This document shows, one piece after another, positions 8,025-63,287 of a stretch of 64,000 bases of DNA (positions within the stretch are counted from its first letter, which is position 1; every line of letters starts with the position of its first letter). The position numbers and the translations under genes were made by a program. The stretch comes from Patescibacteria group bacterium. GTDB taxonomy: Bacteria; Patescibacteriota; Microgenomatia; Levybacterales; UBA12049. The DNA lies in the NCBI GenBank assembly GCA_041743715.1, contig JBGTMH010000045.1, forward strand, positions 18,092 through 82,091. Reading direction: 5' to 3'. The notes below the pieces were generated by a model that made no database searches, was not told the DNA's origin, and saw only the letters and a list, made by a program, of their open reading frames with translations.

Positions 8025-10166
8025 TTAATATTTGAAGATTTGGAAAAGGTTGCTGTAGTCATCTGTCCAGAGTTTTATGTCTGTTCTACTTGGCTTGTCC
8101 TTTTTTGCTTTGTTAAGTGCTGAGGTCGTAAGTAATGATTTATCAGCCGCGAGAAACGCCCATTTGGAACGTGACTGCATATCATTTGCAGGAGGCACAT
8201 CGATAAAAATAACATGCATCTTGTGATATTGCGCAGCTTTTTGGATGACAGGAATGAGATCAAGATAGGTATTTGAAATATGGACCGCGATAATACTCTC
8301 CTTTGCAAGATGTGCTTTATAGAGTGCAAATGCTTCTTTGGTCAGCAGATGTACGGGGATTGCGTCATCGTTAAATGCATCCACGATAAAGAGATGATAG
8401 TTCTGCTTGTTATTTTCTTTGAGTTCTTTTTCCATTGAAAGCCTTCCATCACCGACAACATTTGTCACTTTTGCAGGTGTGTTGGCAAGATAGGTAAAAT
8501 GTGTCTTTGCCAGTTCTACATCTAACGGATTTAATTCATAAAATTTGATAGTATCTCCCTCTTGTCCATATGCTGCGATTGTCCCAACACCCAGTCCGAT
8601 AACACCAATCTGTAGTGGAGTCGTTTTTTCGCGAACACTATCGACAGCAAGTCCGATACTCTTTTCTCCAAAATATGTTGTCGGTTTCATCTTTTGTGAC
8701 TCAGCCAAGGGTTGGCAACCATGGATAATTTTGCCATTGAGTAGGCATCGGGTATCGGTTTTTTCTTGCTGCATTATTCGGAGTGTACCGTAGGAATTTC
8801 TCCAAACGCCAACTGAATTATTTGTTTGTTCAAGAAATAAGGCTATGGAAATGATTCCAAAAAAGAAACTGACAACAGCGATAAGAAAGACGGTCATTTC
8901 TTTTTGGGACCGGAGACCAAAATCAAGTCGGCGGTACAGAAATGAATTTTTATACTTGATAAGCACAAGGACTGCAATAAGCGTTGTTAAAAATAACCCA
9001 AGCAAGAATTCCCAAAAGAGTCCAATAAAAAAAATCGGCGCGATAATCGCGACAATTAATGCTCCTACCACACTGCCGAAAGCCATTACTAAGTAAAAGG
9101 CATTTATGTCTTTTGTTGGGGGTCTCGTGGCAAAAAGTTCACCGTGACACACCATAAAACAGCTGAAAAGCATAATGGTATACAAAACAAGCTCGACAAA
9201 AATGCTCAGTGCAGGCGGCTGGGTCAGAAGGGCTAGGACTACAGGAATAGTCAGAAGAAAACAATACGCGTAGAGATTCCGTTTGTAAAAAGATCGCTCA
9301 CTAAAGCATAGGATAAAAGAAAGAAGATATAATCCGAGCGGCAGAAGCCAAAGAAACGGAATCGGGGCGATACCCTGTGTCAATTGATGTGTTCCAGCAA
9401 GAAGCATGAGTGATGAGACTGCGGGAAGAAAGAGCCAGAGTCTATACTGTGTCATCCCGACCGAGTCCGCAGACGAGTGGAGGGATCTTTTCAACTGTGC
9501 CGCTTGTGGTGAGAAGATTCCTCGACTCCTTTCAGTCGCTCGGAATGACAAATAAGTACAAAATACAAGTAATAAACATAAAATAATAAAAATAAGTGAC
9601 CAAATCTGTCCTTGGTTTTGTAATGAAAGAAAGGGTTCGATAAAAAAAGGATAACTAATAATTGCCAACAGGGAGCCCGCATTGGAAAGAGCATAGAGTG
9701 GATAAGGAGATTTTTTATGAGGAAGTACACTGAACCATTTTTGTAAAAGCGTGCTGGTTGTGGAGAGAAGAAAATATGGTAGCCCGACACTTATCAGTAA
9801 GATAGCAAGTACCTGGATTACCGGTGCGTATGTCTCAGGAAGTTTTAGTTCAACTCCTGGTGTAATAGGTGAGTTCCAATGTGAAAATAAAAGCACCGTA
9901 ATAATGACAATTGTCACAACTAATGTACTATGAAGCAAGAGCTGCTGTCTTAATGAGAATTTTGTGAGCAGATACGCGTACAAGTAACCCGCCAAAAGCA
10001 GGGTTTGAAAAAATAACAGTGAGGTTATCCAAACAAACGATGTTCCACCAAACCATGGAAGAATATATTTTCCGATGAGCGGTTGGACTTGGAAGAGCAG
10101 AAAAGCGCTGAGGAAGATGGTTACTGAAAAACTGATGAAGTAGAGAAGCGAATGGTTGTATTTCAT
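8025..10166 (-). CDS. Polytopic membrane domain fused to a spermidine-synthase-like (class I methyltransferase fold) domain
   Basis: 713 aa. About 450 aa of TM helices, then VIGLGVGTIAAYGQEGDTIKFYELNP...LFIVDAFNDDAIPVHLLTKEAF, a spermidine synthase family signature. Confidence 0.75.
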   Translation of the reverse strand: MKYNHSLLYFISFSVTIFLSAFLLFQVQPLIGKYILPWFGGTSFVWITSLLFFQTLLLAGYLYAYLLTKFSLRQQLLLHSTLVVTIVIITVLLFSHWNSPITPGVELKLPETYAPVIQVLAILLISVGLPYFLLSTTSTLLQKWFSVLPHKKSPYPLYALSNAGSLLAIISYPFFIEPFLSLQNQGQIWSLIFIILCLLLVFCTYLSFRATERSRGIFSPQAAQLKRSLHSSADSVGMTQYRLWLFLPAVSSLMLLAGTHQLTQGIAPIPFLWLLPLGLYLLSFILCFSERSFYKRNLYAYCFLLTIPVVLALLTQPPALSIFVELVLYTIMLFSCFMVCHGELFATRPPTKDINAFYLVMAFGSVVGALIVAIIAPIFFIGLFWEFLLGLFLTTLIAVLVLIKYKNSFLYRRLDFGLRSQKEMTVFLIAVVSFFFGIISIALFLEQTNNSVGVWRNSYGTLRIMQQEKTDTRCLLNGKIIHGCQPLAESQKMKPTTYFGEKSIGLAVDSVREKTTPLQIGVIGLGVGTIAAYGQEGDTIKFYELNPLDVELAKTHFTYLANTPAKVTNVVGDGRLSMEKELKENNKQNYHLFIVDAFNDDAIPVHLLTKEAFALYKAHLAKESIIAVHISNTYLDLIPVIQKAAQYHKMHVIFIDVPPANDMQSRSKWAFLAADKSLLTTSALNKAKKDKPSRTDIKLWTDDYSNLFQIFKY
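9451..9549. repeat. 99-bp nested palindromic element (GTCATCCCGACCGAG...GTCGCTCGGAATGAC) inside the coding sequence
   Basis: Outer arms 9451-9465 / 9535-9549 pair at 12 of 15 positions. Inner arms 9475-9492 / 9511-9528 pair at 15 of 18. 99 bp is 33 codons, read through as LSFRATERSRGIFSPQAAQLKRSLHSSADSVGMT between TM helices. Confidence 0.7.
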
Positions 10167-25013: not shown

Positions 25014-25384
25014 TAAATAATTAACTGTAGCGTGCGAACAATAAGAATAAATGAAAGTAACGCTGCGAGAAGTGTGGTAATACTGAGAATTCGCGAGACG
25101 AGGGGCATGGTAGCATAGAGTTTGGCTAGGAGAAAATAATTAAAGGAAAAAAATATAACAGTTATCACAAGTGGCAGTACGATCTCAAGACGAGTTCCTA
25201 GCCTTGCTTCTCCCCAAGGCATTTGATTATAGAGTGGAATAACCGGGGGAAGTGAAAAATAAAATATGCCAAGAGATAAGGTATGAAGCAAAAGAAGCAT
25301 AAATGCCATGGTCATTGCCCAACGAATAATCTTATCTGCTTTAATATGACTAAAGACTCCGTTCATAAATTGTAGCTCCCTCAA
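25013..25384 (-). CDS. Small hypothetical membrane protein
   Basis: 123-aa ORF with 4 hydrophobic segments, tightly packed between two envelope genes. The start is uncertain (overlaps the upstream gene by 35 nt). Confidence 0.5.
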   Translation of the reverse strand: MRELQFMNGVFSHIKADKIIRWAMTMAFMLLLLHTLSLGIFYFSLPPVIPLYNQMPWGEARLGTRLEIVLPLVITVIFFSFNYFLLAKLYATMPLVSRILSITTLLAALLSFILIVRTLQLII

Positions 25385-26921
25385 GGGTAAAGCGCATTAT
25401 ATAAAGTGTCGCACGAAACGGCAAGGGCTCTATTTCATTCAGGGTAATAATATACTTTGGTTTTGCGCGATCGATAGCTTCTTGTGTTTCATTTATTGCG
25501 GCTTTGTTCTGGCTTATGTGATAGGCGACAGTATATTTGTTCGGTGGCAGTTTATTAGAGAGGGCATAAATTTGCGCATTATTACCCCAAATAAAAACAT
25601 TATCTTCTGGCGTTGTATGCGTATTGATAAAAGACGCGACTGCATAATCACGAGGAGTTTTGCGATCGAAAAACGCTTGATAAGATGTGACGTCTTTTTC
25701 CCCTGTGACGAATAGGAGAGTGTTTTGGTAATACGCAATTGTTTTCGTAACACCAAAACGGAACTGAGACATAGTGAGAAACATAACAATTATTATGCAC
25801 AACAGAATGCTAACTCGTTGCGGTTTGGTCCGGCTCGCGAAGAATAATCCTATGAGTAAACAAAAACTTGGAAGCAGGACCAACACATAATGTGTATAAG
25901 GACGTCCCGAAAAAAATGTATTAAAAAGAGAAAACACAACCCAGAGCGCGATAAAGAGTGCTGTATGGGAGAATAATTTTCTTTTAAGGAAAACGATAAG
26001 TAAAACGATGACGAGGAGTAATAGCTTGAGAAGAAGAAACCCTTGAGGTATTCCTAAAAAATTGTTCTGCCAGCCAACATATCCAACATTACCGAAAAAT
26101 GCCGCTTGTATAAAGTCTTTAAGAGCACCGTGAGATGCAAAATAGAGGATGGTGATAAGGAGTGGCAGGAAGAATCCAAAAGTCATTGGCAACACATATT
26201 GAAGTACTTGTTTGAAATGTTTTCGGTTTATTTTTTGTAAGTTCATAGAAAGGACAAATAAGAAGAATGCAGCAAAGTCAAAGAGAGCGACTATTTTAAA
26301 GAGAAAAGCAATACCGAGTAAAAGACCGGCAATGAAAAGTTTCATTTTGTTGTCATTGCGAGCGACTGATAAGGAGCGCGGCAATCCCCAGCTTTTTGGC
26401 AAATCCACAGGGGATTGCTTCGTCGTTCCTTCTCGCAATGACGAAGTATAGACAATCAATCCAGCCATAATGATTGGTAGCAACATGAAATTCTCGGCAT
26501 TGGCAATATTTCCTTCAACGAGTGGCGTTGCAAAGAGCAGTATATAAAGAGAGGTTGTCGCGATGCTTATGCGAAGTGAAGAGAAAAGTTTTTTGGAAAG
26601 CAAAAAGAAAAAAACAACTGAAAGCAAGCCCACAACAAGCGACATGACTCGAACTGTAGTTTGATCACCGTTTGCAACTGCATATACGAGATACAAGAGG
26701 GGAGGTTTGTTGTCCCAAATGTCACGATACAAAAGCCAACCTTTATCAATTGCTTGGCCCATAACTTCATAAATTCCTTCATCTCCGTACCAATACGGTT
26801 CAATCACTGAAGGAAGTCGAAGCAGAAAAAAAATAATACAAAGTACAAGAAGTGACCAAAAAAACTTACTTTTTTCTAAATAGGTGAGGAACTTCATAAT
26901 CTTAAATTTTCCATTGTCCAT
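25350..26921 (-). CDS. GT-C fold glycosyltransferase (ArnT/PMT_2-like, family 39/83-like)
   Basis: 523 aa, polytopic. The first loop YWYGDEGIY / DNKPPL is typical of ArnT/PMT_2 enzymes. It contains the palindromic element at 26352-26442. Confidence 0.7.
   Translation of the reverse strand: MDNGKFKIMKFLTYLEKSKFFWSLLVLCIIFFLLRLPSVIEPYWYGDEGIYEVMGQAIDKGWLLYRDIWDNKPPLLYLVYAVANGDQTTVRVMSLVVGLLSVVFFFLLSKKLFSSLRISIATTSLYILLFATPLVEGNIANAENFMLLPIIMAGLIVYTSSLREGTTKQSPVDLPKSWGLPRSLSVARNDNKMKLFIAGLLLGIAFLFKIVALFDFAAFFLFVLSMNLQKINRKHFKQVLQYVLPMTFGFFLPLLITILYFASHGALKDFIQAAFFGNVGYVGWQNNFLGIPQGFLLLKLLLLVIVLLIVFLKRKLFSHTALFIALWVVFSLFNTFFSGRPYTHYVLVLLPSFCLLIGLFFASRTKPQRVSILLCIIIVMFLTMSQFRFGVTKTIAYYQNTLLFVTGEKDVTSYQAFFDRKTPRDYAVASFINTHTTPEDNVFIWGNNAQIYALSNKLPPNKYTVAYHISQNKAAINETQEAIDRAKPKYIITLNEIEPLPFRATLYIMRFTLEGATIYERSL
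26352..26442. repeat. 91-bp nested palindromic element (GTCATTGCGAG...CTCGCAATGAC) inside the coding sequence
   Basis: Perfect 11-bp outer arms 26352-26362 / 26432-26442. Perfect 9-bp inner arms GCAATCCCC 26381-26389 / GGGGATTGC 26410-26418. The ORF reads through it as SLREGTTKQSPVDLPKSWGLPRSLSVARNDNK. Confidence 0.75.
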
Positions 26922-27015
26922 ATACCATTCTCCATGTTATTTATTAATTGTTCAATAGCATTATTTTCCTAAATAGAAAATCAATGGAAAATGGAACCTG
27001 GAAAATGGAAAATTC

Positions 27016-28516: not shown

Positions 28517-28614
28517 AAAGTCAAAATGCAAAAGTCAAAATTGTAAGTTAAAATTCAAAAGTTGTGTTACTTTTTACTTTTGAGTTGCACTTTTGACTTT
28601 TGCATTTTGACTTT
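28517..28614. repeat. Perfect 24-bp inverted repeat separated by 50 bp
   Basis: AAAGTCAAAATGCAAAAGTCAAAA at 28517-28540 is the exact reverse complement of 28591-28614. The spacer holds a further CAAAAGT/ACTTTTG pair. It lies between the tatD stop and the GT2 start, and its right arm supplies the last tatD codons. Confidence 0.8.
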
Positions 28615-29485: not shown

Positions 29486-29489
29486 AAGT

Positions 29490-29560
29490 AGGAATCAGGA
29501 AGTATGAATCATGAATTAGGGTTTCTTTTCCCTGATTCCTAATTCCTTATTCATGATTCA
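29490..29560. repeat. Interleaved inverted repeats (A-B-A'-B') between metG and tatD
   Basis: A AGGAATCAGG 29490-29499 pairs with A' CCTGATTCCT 29531-29540 (10 of 10). B TGAATCATGAAT 29504-29515 pairs with B' ATTCATGATTCA 29549-29560 (12 of 12). Confidence 0.7.
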
Positions 29561-30998: not shown

Positions 30999-31007
30999 AG
31001 GTTTTTT

Positions 31008-31074
31008 GTCATGCTGAACCTGTTTCAACATCTTATCAGTTATAATGAGGATCCGGAAACAAGTTCAGGATGAC
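31008..31074. repeat. 67-bp palindromic element (GTCATGCTGAACCTGTTTC...GAAACAAGTTCAGGATGAC) in the metG 5' region
   Basis: 19-bp arms 31008-31026 / 31056-31074 pair at 17 of 19 positions, with a 29-nt loop. It shares GTCAT/ATGAC termini with the elements at 9451 and 26352. Confidence 0.75.
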
Positions 31075-60920: not shown

Positions 60921-63287
60921 ATGAATAAAACCTCAGTACCTGTAGAATTTGCAGGGAAAACATTGACACTTGAAACAGGACAGTTAGCAGTACAAGCTAC
61001 AGCAGCAGTCTATGCCCGTCTTGGGGATACTGTTGTTCTCGCGACTGTTGTTGAAGGTGGCAAAAGAGCAGATCTGGATTATTTTCCTCTTTCAGTTGAG
61101 TACGTTGAAAGATTGTATGCTGGTGGAAAAATAAAAGGCAGCCGTTGGGTAAAGCGCGAAGGCCGTCCTTCGGACGAAGCAATTCTTGCTGGACGATTGA
61201 TTGACCGTTCGATTCGTCCGCTCTTCCCGAAAGAATTTAAAAATGAGGTGCAAATCATGGTTACTGTATTGTCTGTAGATAGCGAAAACGAACCAGACAT
61301 TTTGGCATTAAATGCTGTTTCAGCAGCTTTAGCAATTTCTAGAATTCCTTGGAATGGGCCTATTGCTGCAGTCCGTATGGGGTACATAGAAGAAAGTGAA
61401 GGCAATCAAGCTGCATACCTTCCAAATCCTACCTCAAGTGAATTACTTATTTCCACACTTGATATCGTCGCTTCCCAAAGTCATGATAAAACCGTTATGG
61501 TTGAGGCAGGCGCGATGGAAGTTCCGGAAGATGTTGTCGCGGGAGCAATTGAAAAAGCGCATACGGAGACGAGAAAAATGCTTGCTGGTATTGAAGAGTT
61601 TGTTAAAAAAGTAGGGCAGAAAAAACTTACTGTCGCGAAAGACGCATCTCTTGCTGAATCAGTACATCTCTTTGAAAAAACCTACAAAAGTGATATTGCT
61701 GCGCTGATTGAAACCAGAGTGAAAAAAGAAGGTGGAGGAAATGAAACAGAAGATTTGATTGATCGGGTCTATGACGAATTGAAAATGAAAGACCCTCAAG
61801 CGGAGGTTGATAAAAAATCACTTTCAAAAGCGCTTGAGCAGGTTATGTTTAAGATGATCCGGGCAGATGTCGTCAATAAAAAGAAACGCGCTGATGGTCG
61901 GGCGGTTGATGAAGTACGTGAAATCTCAGCGCAAGTCAGCATGTTACCAAGAACTCACGGATCAGCGTTCTTTCAACGAGGGATAACACAAGCATTAAGT
62001 ATTGTGACACTTGGTTCACCTCGTCTTGAACAACTGATTGAGTCCGCAGAAGGCGAAGAAACCAAACGCTACATTCATCATTACTCAGGTCCTCCATACT
62101 CTTTCGGACAAGCTGGAAGAGCTGGATTTGTTTCCCGTCGAGAAATCGGTCATGGCGCCCTCGCGGAACGGGCACTCAAAGCTGTTATTCCATCGCAAGC
62201 AGATTTCCCTTACACAATTCGGGTTGTTTCTGAAGTCTTGTCTCAGAATGGTTCAAGCTCTATGGCTTCTACATGTGGCTCAACGCTGGCTCTCATGGAT
62301 GCTGGTGTGCCGATCACTGCTCCCGTTGCTGGTATCTCAATCGGTATGATGTCAGAAGGCGATAAATATGTTTTGTTGACTGATATCATCGGTCTTGAGG
62401 ATTTCTCAGGGGATATGGATTTCAAAGTGGCAGGTACCGAAAAAGGTATTACCGCGATTCAACTTGATGTGAAAATCCCTGGATTAACCGATGCGCAAGT
62501 TGTTGAAATTTTGGCCCGTGCCCGCACAGCCCGCATGACGATTCTAGAAAAGATGCTTGCCGCGATCCCGGAGTCACGTTCAGAAGTCTCAGAATACGCG
62601 CCAAAGATTGAACAAATTCATATTCCAGTTGATAAAATTGGTGAAGTTATCGGACCTGGTGGCAAAAATATTAAAGCTATTATTGCGACAACTGGAGCTG
62701 ATGTTGATATCGACGACGATGGCATGGTCAGTGTTTCAGGTATTTCTGCTGACGCAGTTCAAAAAGCAGTGGACTGGATCAGCGGTATGACCCGAGACGT
62801 AACCCCTGGTGAGGAATTTGATGGTGAAGTAAAACGCATTTTGCCATTTGGAGCCTTCGTCGAATATCTTCCAGGACGGGAAGGTATGGTCCATGTTAGT
62901 AAAATGAAAAGAGGCTTTGTCAAAGATCCGTCCGAAGTCGTTGCTGTTGGAGATAAAGTAAGAGTCAAAGTCGAAGAGCGCGACCAGCAGGGAAGAATCA
63001 ATCTTTCTATGTTACTCGGTGATGATAATGATCAGCCACAGCAATCACAACCACAATCACAACCACAATCACAACCGCAACCAAATTTTGATCGCCCACA
63101 ACCGCAAGGTGGAGATGATCGAGGTGGACGTCCATTTGAAAGAAGAACTGACAACAGAAATGACCGACCTGGCTTTGATCGCCCTGATCGCTCAGATCAT
63201 CCTCTCTCACGCCAATTACGCCGCCAAAACGATGAAAAAAGAACCGGCGGCCGCAAATTTCCTCCAAAGAAACGGTTTAGTAGGTAA
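60921..63287 (+). CDS. pnp: Polyribonucleotide nucleotidyltransferase (PNPase) with a low-complexity C-terminal tail
   Basis: Two RNase PH domains (RADGR, GSSSMASTCG), KH (IGPGGKNIK), S1 (GAFVEYLPGREGMVHVS), then a ~95-aa QPQSQ / RGG-DR-rich extension. Confidence 0.95.
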   Translation: MNKTSVPVEFAGKTLTLETGQLAVQATAAVYARLGDTVVLATVVEGGKRADLDYFPLSVEYVERLYAGGKIKGSRWVKREGRPSDEAILAGRLIDRSIRPLFPKEFKNEVQIMVTVLSVDSENEPDILALNAVSAALAISRIPWNGPIAAVRMGYIEESEGNQAAYLPNPTSSELLISTLDIVASQSHDKTVMVEAGAMEVPEDVVAGAIEKAHTETRKMLAGIEEFVKKVGQKKLTVAKDASLAESVHLFEKTYKSDIAALIETRVKKEGGGNETEDLIDRVYDELKMKDPQAEVDKKSLSKALEQVMFKMIRADVVNKKKRADGRAVDEVREISAQVSMLPRTHGSAFFQRGITQALSIVTLGSPRLEQLIESAEGEETKRYIHHYSGPPYSFGQAGRAGFVSRREIGHGALAERALKAVIPSQADFPYTIRVVSEVLSQNGSSSMASTCGSTLALMDAGVPITAPVAGISIGMMSEGDKYVLLTDIIGLEDFSGDMDFKVAGTEKGITAIQLDVKIPGLTDAQVVEILARARTARMTILEKMLAAIPESRSEVSEYAPKIEQIHIPVDKIGEVIGPGGKNIKAIIATTGADVDIDDDGMVSVSGISADAVQKAVDWISGMTRDVTPGEEFDGEVKRILPFGAFVEYLPGREGMVHVSKMKRGFVKDPSEVVAVGDKVRVKVEERDQQGRINLSMLLGDDNDQPQQSQPQSQPQSQPQPNFDRPQPQGGDDRGGRPFERRTDNRNDRPGFDRPDRSDHPLSRQLRRQNDEKRTGGRKFPPKKRFSR

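Follow-up and report, generated by a model that had tools for sequence, protein, structure and literature searches.

How does a nested DNA palindrome come to be read through, in frame, as part of a membrane protein in a lineage with ultra-small genomes? This question is raised by a 99-nt element, hereafter element A, at positions 9451-9549 of the 64-kb window analyzed here, the whole 64,000-nt stretch taken from contig JBGTMH010000045.1 of a Patescibacteria group bacterium (Levybacterales). It lies within a minus-strand gene (8025..10166) coding for a polytopic membrane protein, and an earlier note, based on the letters of the DNA alone, had likened it to the Rickettsia palindromic elements (RPEs). 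We propose that element A belongs to a pan-bacterial family of tagged hairpin repeats, of which it is in all likelihood a selfish or neutral, non-autonomous copy that a permissive loop can tolerate. This family has been described before, under separate names, as the CGTC/TGTC-tagged repetitive extragenic palindromes (REPs), some of the RPEs, the Neisseria dRS3/NTS repeats and the Ssn-related motifs (SRMs).

Element A is a dimer of inverted hairpin units within an intact gene

Element A (GTCATCCCGACCGAGTCCGCAGACGAGTGGAGGGATCTTTTCAACTGTGCCGCTTGTGGTGAGAAGATTCCTCGACTCCTTTCAGTCGCTCGGAATGAC) is a two-tier palindrome, with outer arms (TGTCATCCCGACCGA / TCGCTCGGAATGACA) showing 87% complementarity over 15 nt and inner arms (GAGTGGAGGGATCTTTTC / GAGAAGATTCCTCGACTC) that are paired in the minimum-energy fold. 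As RNA, the 111-nt stretch containing it folds at -43.9 kcal/mol on the plus strand and -41.9 kcal/mol on the minus strand, as against about -29 kcal/mol for dinucleotide shuffles (z = -4.1 and -3.7, with 1/200 and 0/200 shuffles folding equally well). With DNA parameters the corresponding z-scores are -2.6 and -2.3, and 4/200 shuffles are equally good on each strand. An RNA fold was among the checks called for in the earlier note.

At a finer level, the palindrome resolves into a pair of hairpin units, inverted and tail to tail, a delimitation founded on its sequence, its folds and its homology to copies in other genomes (L049, L122 and the arms of a composite in L008, described below). Unit a (9516..9549, minus strand) has the form (T)GTC-ATTCC-GAGCGACTGAAAGGAGTCGA-GGAAT-C, that is, a TGTC tag, a 5-bp closing stem with AT at its start, CGACT/AGTCG as the inner stem, and a C right after the closing stem; the segment GTCATTCCGAGCGACTGA within it is common to a sibling element in the window (element B, below) and to 11 matches in other genomes. 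Unit b (9451..9487, plus strand) has the form (T)GTC-ATCCC-GACCGAGTCCGCAGACGAGTGGA-GGGAT-C, and its closing stem, ATCCC/GGGAT, is complementary inside its own unit and pairs imperfectly with unit a. As the ATTCC and ATCCC versions each have their own perfect partner (ATTCC/GGAAT and ATCCC/GGGAT), compensatory change has taken place at the level of the unit. The spacer between the units (9488..9515) differs from copy to copy, and its outer bases prolong the long hairpin.

The gene harboring element A codes for a 713-aa protein of the fused MFS/spermidine synthase family, whose C-terminal domain is spermidine-synthase-like (NF037959, 39.7 bits for a cut-off of 40, E = 2.5e-10). Its alignment with more than 100 homologues of 700-730 aa runs from end to end, indicating that the open reading frame (ORF) is intact. 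Element A is read in frame on the minus strand as the loop …CTY-LSFRATERSRGIFSPQAAQLKRSLHSSADSVGMT-QYRLW…, placed between hydrophobic segments at residues 188-206 and ~245-287, so the reading of this segment as a hydrophilic, Arg/Ser-rich loop between transmembrane helices holds. In 70 aligned homologues the same position is always occupied by a hydrophilic, basic loop of ~20-35 residues with an unconserved sequence.

Codon alignment with the three closest relatives having retrievable DNA, namely L001 (71% identity), L002 (67%) and L003 (60%), bears on whether the 33 codons are an insertion. At this site the relatives have AT-rich Lys/Asn/Thr codons specifying an unrelated loop of ~25 aa, and the palindrome is absent. 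Conserved helices directly adjoin element A on both sides; given that the relatives have a Lys/Asn loop here, element A fills the whole loop, with 34 residues versus ~25, for a net gain of ~8 aa. On these alignments element A is a lineage-specific gain, with the native loop replaced or subsequently lost. Thus, of the insertion envisaged in the earlier note, the acquisition itself stands, while the picture of a clean addition of 33 codons gives way to one of replacement.

Other identities for the palindrome were also considered. An intrinsic terminator is ruled out, as the hairpin sits inside an intact ORF and a U-run is absent 3' of it on the mRNA strand, and a tRNA-derived origin was rejected, there being no tRNA genes in the window. 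A search of the whole window against Rfam at gathering thresholds recovered no family, and a literal search of the literature for GTCATTGCGAG returned only unrelated primer matches.

Sibling elements in the window

When all GTCAT…ATGAC intervals of 45-164 nt in the window are folded, only three emerge as strong folders: element A and those at 26352-26442 and 31008-31074, the very elements with which kinship had been suspected. Element B (26352..26442) is a 91-nt dimer of units 26352-26386(+) and 26413-26442(-), both of the form GTC-ATTGC…GCAAT-C. Its minus-strand translation, SSLREGTTKQSPVDLPKSWGLPRSLSVARNDN, lies in a loop of a 523-aa GT39/ArnT/PMT-like glycosyltransferase (25350..26921, minus strand), whose homologues carry PF13231/PF02366. 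It occupies a 26-residue alignment gap of the L003 orthologue, and of 79 orthologues almost all have a shorter loop, typically of 10-22 residues as against 34 with element B. The host loops of elements A and B are both K/R-rich and, going by the positive-inside rule, are probably cytoplasmic.

Element C (31008..31074) is a 67-nt dimer of another subfamily (GTCATGCTGAA…TTCAGGATGAC), with a first unit of the form GTC-ATGCTGAA…TTCAACAT-C and a second of the form GTC-ATCCTGAA…TTCCGGAT-C. It is intergenic and upstream of metG, its end being 9 nt from the true start codon of that gene (30998). In the syntenic L123 the metG leader is element-free and 33 nt long, versus 123 nt in the window, and the orthologue begins MAKFYLTT, the equivalent of 30998. 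The called metG ORF is accordingly 11 codons too long, the extra codons (30999-31031; MLKQVQHDKKP) being the right arm of element C. Relative to the syntenic relatives, both elements B and C are gains.

All three elements share a single unit architecture, with an inverted pair whose tails face each other and whose members follow the formula (T/C)GTC, stem beginning AT, interior, complementary stem, C. The tag is TGTC on both strands in elements A and C, and TGTC on the plus and CGTC on the minus strand in element B. A further unit-like match at 62490-62539 is probably due to chance, as shuffles yield 1.8 such matches.

Relatives of the element across bacterial phyla

The 18-mer GTCATTSCGAGCGACTGA is common to element A (minus strand) and element B (plus strand). 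Scanning one genome per bacterial and archaeal species with it yielded matches in at least 119 stretches, against a chance expectation of ~35 by our own arithmetic under uniform base composition. Among the matches listed, the Patescibacteria are represented by Parcubacteria, Roizmanbacteria, Daviesbacteria, Magasanikbacteria, Saccharibacteria and Absconditabacterales; the other lineages include Rickettsia, other Rickettsiales, other Alphaproteobacteria, Omnitrophota, Aminicenantes, Clostridia, Methylomirabilis, Planctomycetota, Zixibacteria, Anaerolineae and more. The similarity extends well past the 18-mer seed, with a consensus of the form GTCATTGCGAGCGACTGAAAGGAGCGnnGCAATC - variable loop - GATTGCTTCGTCGCT…CTCGCAATGAC. 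Among the 122 matches listed, a matching closing half-stem lies at most 30 nt away in 98, the complete GTCAT…ATGAC palindrome is present in 74, and the base preceding GTC is T in 69 and C in 39 (T or C in 108/122). The unit also covaries across these matches, ATTCC being accompanied by GGAATC in 6/6 cases and ATTGC by GCAATC in 89/89 (Fisher p = 1e-9).

The likeness to RPEs drawn in the earlier note extends to the nucleotide level: the 18-mer and the B-type arms around it are found verbatim in Rickettsia genomes (L027, L042, L062, L071). Copies of the A type, near-identical in both arms, occur in L049 and L122, which come from one uncultured genome that appears to carry a 47%-identical homologue (P0032) of the host protein of element A. 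The presence of arms near-identical to the window's elements in unrelated genomes indicates that the palindrome of element A is not a product of chance. A scan of viral contigs with the 18-mer gave 0 matches, and hence no sign of carriage by phages. Complete palindromes sampled across phyla, among the matches listed, lie inside long ORFs in 2/74 cases, which is close to the 2% of intragenic NTS repeats in N. meningitidis (PMC11893778).

At loci of a Rickettsia endosymbiont and of other origin (L007, L048, L059, L065, L097), compact NTS-like units (GTCATTCCCGCGAAAGCGGGAATCCAG, GTCATACCGTGGCTTGACCACGGTATCCAG) often come no more than ~50 nt after the B-type left unit, so that several subfamilies coexist and nest within one genome.

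GIY-YIG nuclease genes between the arms

The arms of element A lead to a family of nuclease genes. Chenal et al. (2025; PMC11893778) found that the Neisseria NTS repeat, CGTCATTCCCGCG…GCGGGAATCYRG, and SRMs flank ssn genes, whose products are 94-aa single-domain GIY-YIG proteins of the cd10448 family; at least one motif is present near 71% of the ssn homologues and motifs are on both sides of 42%. In that work, which included Neisseria and Wolbachia homologues, SsnA needs single-stranded DNA in order to bind the hairpin, and its cut falls a few nucleotides upstream of the GTC tag, with the three bases upstream of the palindrome mattering most for cleavage and the C after it most for binding (PMC11893778). 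These critical bases, the GTC 5' and the C 3' of the palindrome, are intact in all six units of elements A, B and C. The same study noted that the NTS-ssnA-NTS arrangement resembles an insertion sequence, and that NTS repeats in Neisseria cluster beside membrane-protein genes and modulate transformation.

In our pattern-matched loci, short ORFs of the form MKQ.YVYIL.N..N..LYTGVT adjoin the arms. A hidden Markov model built from five of them and run on 853 kb of these loci detected 10 ssn-like GIY-YIG ORFs, 5 of which directly abut the 18-mer seed. They are single-domain PF01541 proteins of ~95 aa (E = 1e-14 to 1e-17), and their closest solved structure, 1zg2 (UPF0213), is a distant one (E = 2e-5). 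Their size and single domain agree with the Ssn clade cd10448, a comparison made through the Pfam GIY-YIG family and 1zg2. An ssn-like ORF lies between left and right dimer units in L021 (Gastranaerophilaceae), L043 (Patescibacteria), L047 (a Rickettsia endosymbiont) and L008 (Omnitrophota), the arms being of the B type in the first three and of the A type in L008. The last of these (681-1064) is a 384-bp arm-ssn-arm composite, whose arms are the counterparts of 9451-9487 and 9516-9549: unit b of element A shows 34 identities over 49 alignment columns with the arm upstream of the ssn-like gene, and the other pair shows 35 over 46; nearly every non-identical column is a gap, and part of these gaps stems from an 8-nt insertion that each L008 arm has. 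As the arm-ssn association seen here is also that of PMC11893778, the link to the nuclease as such is already in print.

Downstream of the L008 composite (1-700) is a tandem array of degenerate …GCTCGGAATGAC / …GTTTGGAATGAC half-units, recalling the clusters of repeats known from the surroundings of ssn genes and from Neisseria and Wolbachia. In L085 (4247-4522), a more distant GIY-YIG ORF (MYYVYVLRSWTQNKFYIGYT…) has a different hairpin (AACCATGAACCAGGACAAACACTTCGTGTCCGGTTCATGGTTA-like) on both flanks, and the two may constitute another nuclease-hairpin pair with its own specificity.

Recurrent residence in membrane-protein loops

Comparison of 79 orthologues of the GT39 protein reveals that the loop occupied by element B in the window has been occupied by other elements in relatives. 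In P0127 there is a 70-nt palindrome (L123, 6384-6453) as a clean insertion, with the native YKILNTKY motif kept beside it. P0122 and P0205 display NTS-type peptides (VIPAKAGIQ…SGMT) in the same loop, while P0129 displays SLRGAQKATRQS…LLRYARND, of which P0136 has a decayed version. Further, P0144 has an element in another GT39 loop, and the MFS homologue P0113 has one at residue 380; the elements of P0006, P0129 and P0122 are deduced from their peptides only. The translated frames of all these elements are only the two stop-free ones, namely S-L/F-R…R-N-D and V-I-P…G-M-T. The independent presence of elements of different subfamilies in GT39 and MFS loops suggests that such loops are either hot spots or subject to a strong tolerance filter.

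Origin of the element and competing explanations

These observations are consistent with a scenario in which the short palindrome would be derived from an ssn-bearing element, for example, as a deletion derivative of a composite, or would be propagated by it in trans. It might spread when DNA that is transiently single-stranded is nicked and then undergoes repair or recombination. Copies landing within genes would survive only if the frame were kept, a stop codon were absent and the receiving loop were permissive and hydrophilic. In the case at hand, the copy would have taken the place of a K/R-rich inter-helix loop, and the encoded peptide would need no function of its own. [quoted passage not shown] Were the dimers indeed so derived, the GIY-YIG single-strand nuclease would be the long-missing mobilizing enzyme of the CGTC REP/RPE superfamily, the near-identical arms in Rickettsia and Patescibacteria would be explained, and the comparative data would offer a route to testing the role of Ssn in the spread of the repeats.

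Several observations weigh against the proposal that element A is a mobile copy of this family. Only 3 dimers are present in the 64-kb window, element A is no clean insertion relative to the orthologues, and it is without a target-site duplication; indeed, neither such a duplication nor a flanking direct repeat was found at elements A, B, C or the L123 copy. The lone unit hairpins of elements A and B are no stabler than shuffles, although the long hairpin is. The published SRM motif, HGTCWYN(0-2)YYVSBRHN(0-5)WNVSBRGN(0-2)RNCYNB, has no match on either strand of the window and so none in any of the six units, whereas the Neisseria NTS used as a control does match it. The ATTGCGAG stem of the ssn-flanking arms in L021, read by eye, likewise violates the YY positions of this motif. 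The 8-9-bp stem and 4-5-nt loop of the CGTC family are also not found in elements A and B, whose units instead combine a 5-bp closing stem with a 3-5-bp inner stem and long interiors, though all units begin with AT. The window and 66 kb of syntenic relatives yielded no ssn-like ORF (best E = 0.5 in the window and L123). Moreover, since the loci were picked by a DNA pattern, our count of ssn-like ORFs adjacent to the arms is biased, a bias covered by the published, unbiased statistics on ssn flanks (PMC11893778). Finally, Ssn is not known to drive mobility, PMC11893778 raising only the resemblance to an insertion sequence.

Among the alternatives, domestication, in which the element is kept as an Ssn target or recombination signal, or for its Arg/Ser-rich loop or mRNA hairpin, has a precedent in the clustering of NTS by membrane-protein genes and its effect on transformation. 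It also draws on the presence of 2/3 of the window's elements in membrane-protein genes, the repeated occupation of the same GT39 loop in relatives and the intact Ssn-critical bases of all six units. We nevertheless deem it improbable: orthologues manage without the element; P0136 has what resembles the P0129 insertion in a state of decay; neither the 64-kb window nor L123 shows an ssn gene in the vicinity; and elsewhere only 2/74 copies are intragenic. Further, lineages differ from one another in the sequence, length and orientation of the inserted peptides, a pattern in keeping with tolerance and not with selection for the peptide.

The pairing of two inverted REP-like units in one long hairpin, which is the REPIN architecture as outlined in PMC3116915 and PMC3337134, could alternatively point to a RAYT (an IS200/IS605-like Y1 transposase) as the mobilizing enzyme, as with the GTAG-tagged REP doublets. 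The tag here is TGTC/CGTC rather than GTAG, no RAYT flanked by CGTC units is reported in PMC3733652, and the gene found between identical arms codes for a GIY-YIG nuclease, all of which make this very unlikely. Chance or coding constraints giving rise to a palindrome, or an assembly artifact joining two contigs at a repeat, would in principle account for element A in isolation, as single hairpins of such a size do arise by chance in 64 kb and assemblies of metagenome-assembled genomes can be mis-joined at repeats. With fold z-scores of -3.7 to -4.1, near-identical arms in non-coding contexts of unrelated phyla, a host ORF that is colinear with its homologues on either side of element A, and conserved synteny with L002, L003 and L123, this explanation is very unlikely as well. 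Hence, we favor a tolerated copy of the tagged hairpin family as the origin of element A.

Implications and other palindromes in the window

Under this interpretation, the RPE phenomenon, in which selfish palindromes are turned into parts of proteins, is extended to a lineage of ultra-small genomes, where inserted codons are conspicuous. It also ties the Rickettsia RPEs, the CGTC REPs and the Neisseria NTS/SRM repeats to one family at the nucleotide level, situated beside Ssn GIY-YIG nucleases. In practical terms, these elements create spurious ORF extensions, such as the 11 extra codons of metG, and odd Arg/Ser-rich loops, which annotators and structure predictors would do well to recognize. 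As the published SRM motif misses the subfamily of elements A and B, current censuses undercount the family.

The window features other palindromes. One of 98 nt (28517-28614; AAAGTCAAAATGCAAAAGTCAAAATTG…), AT-rich and unrelated to the GTCAT family, has 46-nt arms with 87% complementarity and overlaps the 3' end of a TatD-like ORF (…SKLKSQNAKVKSATQK) as well as the start of the gene that follows; no second copy was found in the window or the retrieved loci. Between metG and the TatD-like gene (29486-29560) are nested AT-rich inverted repeats, AAGTAGGAATCAGG/CCTGATTCCTAATT and TGAATCATGAATTAGG/CCTTATTCATGATTCA, and a similar sequence is present in L086 (Parcubacteria GW2011_GWC2_42_12, ~2223-2259); these may represent a second family of palindromic repeats in such genomes. 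A 31-nt inverted repeat with 84% complementarity (26905-27014; AATTTTCCATTGTCCATATACCATTCTCCAT / ATGGAAAATGGAACCTGGAAAATGGAAAATT), unique in the window, bridges the intergenic gap where the GT39-like gene starts.

Relationship to known repeat systems

The REPINs and RAYTs (Bertels and Rainey, 2011) share with element A the inverted REP doublet and the long hairpin, and their non-autonomous copies are likewise believed to rely on an enzyme gene that is present in single copy, with these units on its flanks. The two systems differ in both signal and enzyme, with a GTAG tag and a Y1 HUH transposase in the former and (T/C)GTC and a GIY-YIG nuclease in the latter; neither the GTAG tag nor a unit-flanked RAYT was found here, no search of the window for a Y1 transposase having been made. 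Against the classical definition of MITEs, elements A, B and C and the L123 copy present arms like terminal inverted repeats and lack the target-site duplication. Another parallel is offered by the RPEs (Ogata et al., 2000), which are palindromes of ~70-150 nt inserted in frame, leaving the ORFs intact and adding hydrophilic extra segments; elements A and B are both such in-frame palindromes in intact ORFs. The present case is distinguished by its different, uncultured host lineage, with homologues named Levyibacteriota and Saccharimonadales, among others, and Patescibacteria among the element-bearing loci, by the low density of the elements (3 per 64 kb) and by the substitution of element A for a native loop.

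There is also a correspondence with the CGTC-tagged REPs (PMC3733652; Di Nocera et al., 2013), in which the tag is often TGTC, the stems begin with AT, the tail is short and dimers are frequent. To these the Neisseria dRS3 and the R. conorii RPE-4 and RPE-6 have been assigned; their intragenic dimers encode 20-30 aa, and that study identified neither a dedicated transposase nor any RAYT flanked by CGTC units. The elements of the window share with them the tag, the AT-starting stems, the short tail, the folding of dimers into one large hairpin and the occurrence of heterodimers and intragenic dimers. The described families are mostly head-to-head, whereas elements A and B are tail-to-tail heterodimers; element C, with a 7-8-bp stem containing a mismatch and a 5-nt loop, is a nearer fit.

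With the SRMs, the elements have in common the GTC right 5' of an AT-starting palindrome, the C right 3' of it, the directionality of the units, the placing of the same arms on both sides of ~95-aa GIY-YIG genes, in an order like NTS-ssn-NTS (L008, L021, L043, L047), and a very wide spread across phyla, including Rickettsia. Unlike the compact hairpins of ~20 nt typical of SRMs, the units of elements A and B have a 5-bp closing stem and a 20-27-nt interior, and element A is a short, gene-less dimer within a coding region. Where the earlier note knew of no described equivalent, therefore, the CGTC/TGTC REPs (PMC3733652) and the Ssn hairpin repeats (PMC11893778) are such equivalents; with respect to this lineage its statement stands, in that we found no report of such repeats for Patescibacteria in the literature on them, and PMC11893778 makes no mention of this group. 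Element A is placed in the CGTC/TGTC REP-Ssn superfamily, in a subfamily missed by current search motifs, by its tag, AT start, post-stem C and dimers, together with the ssn-like genes bracketed by the same arms. What is new here is the patescibacterial host, a unit variant outside the published motif, the substitution of an element for a native loop and the repeated colonization of the same membrane-protein loops by members of this superfamily.

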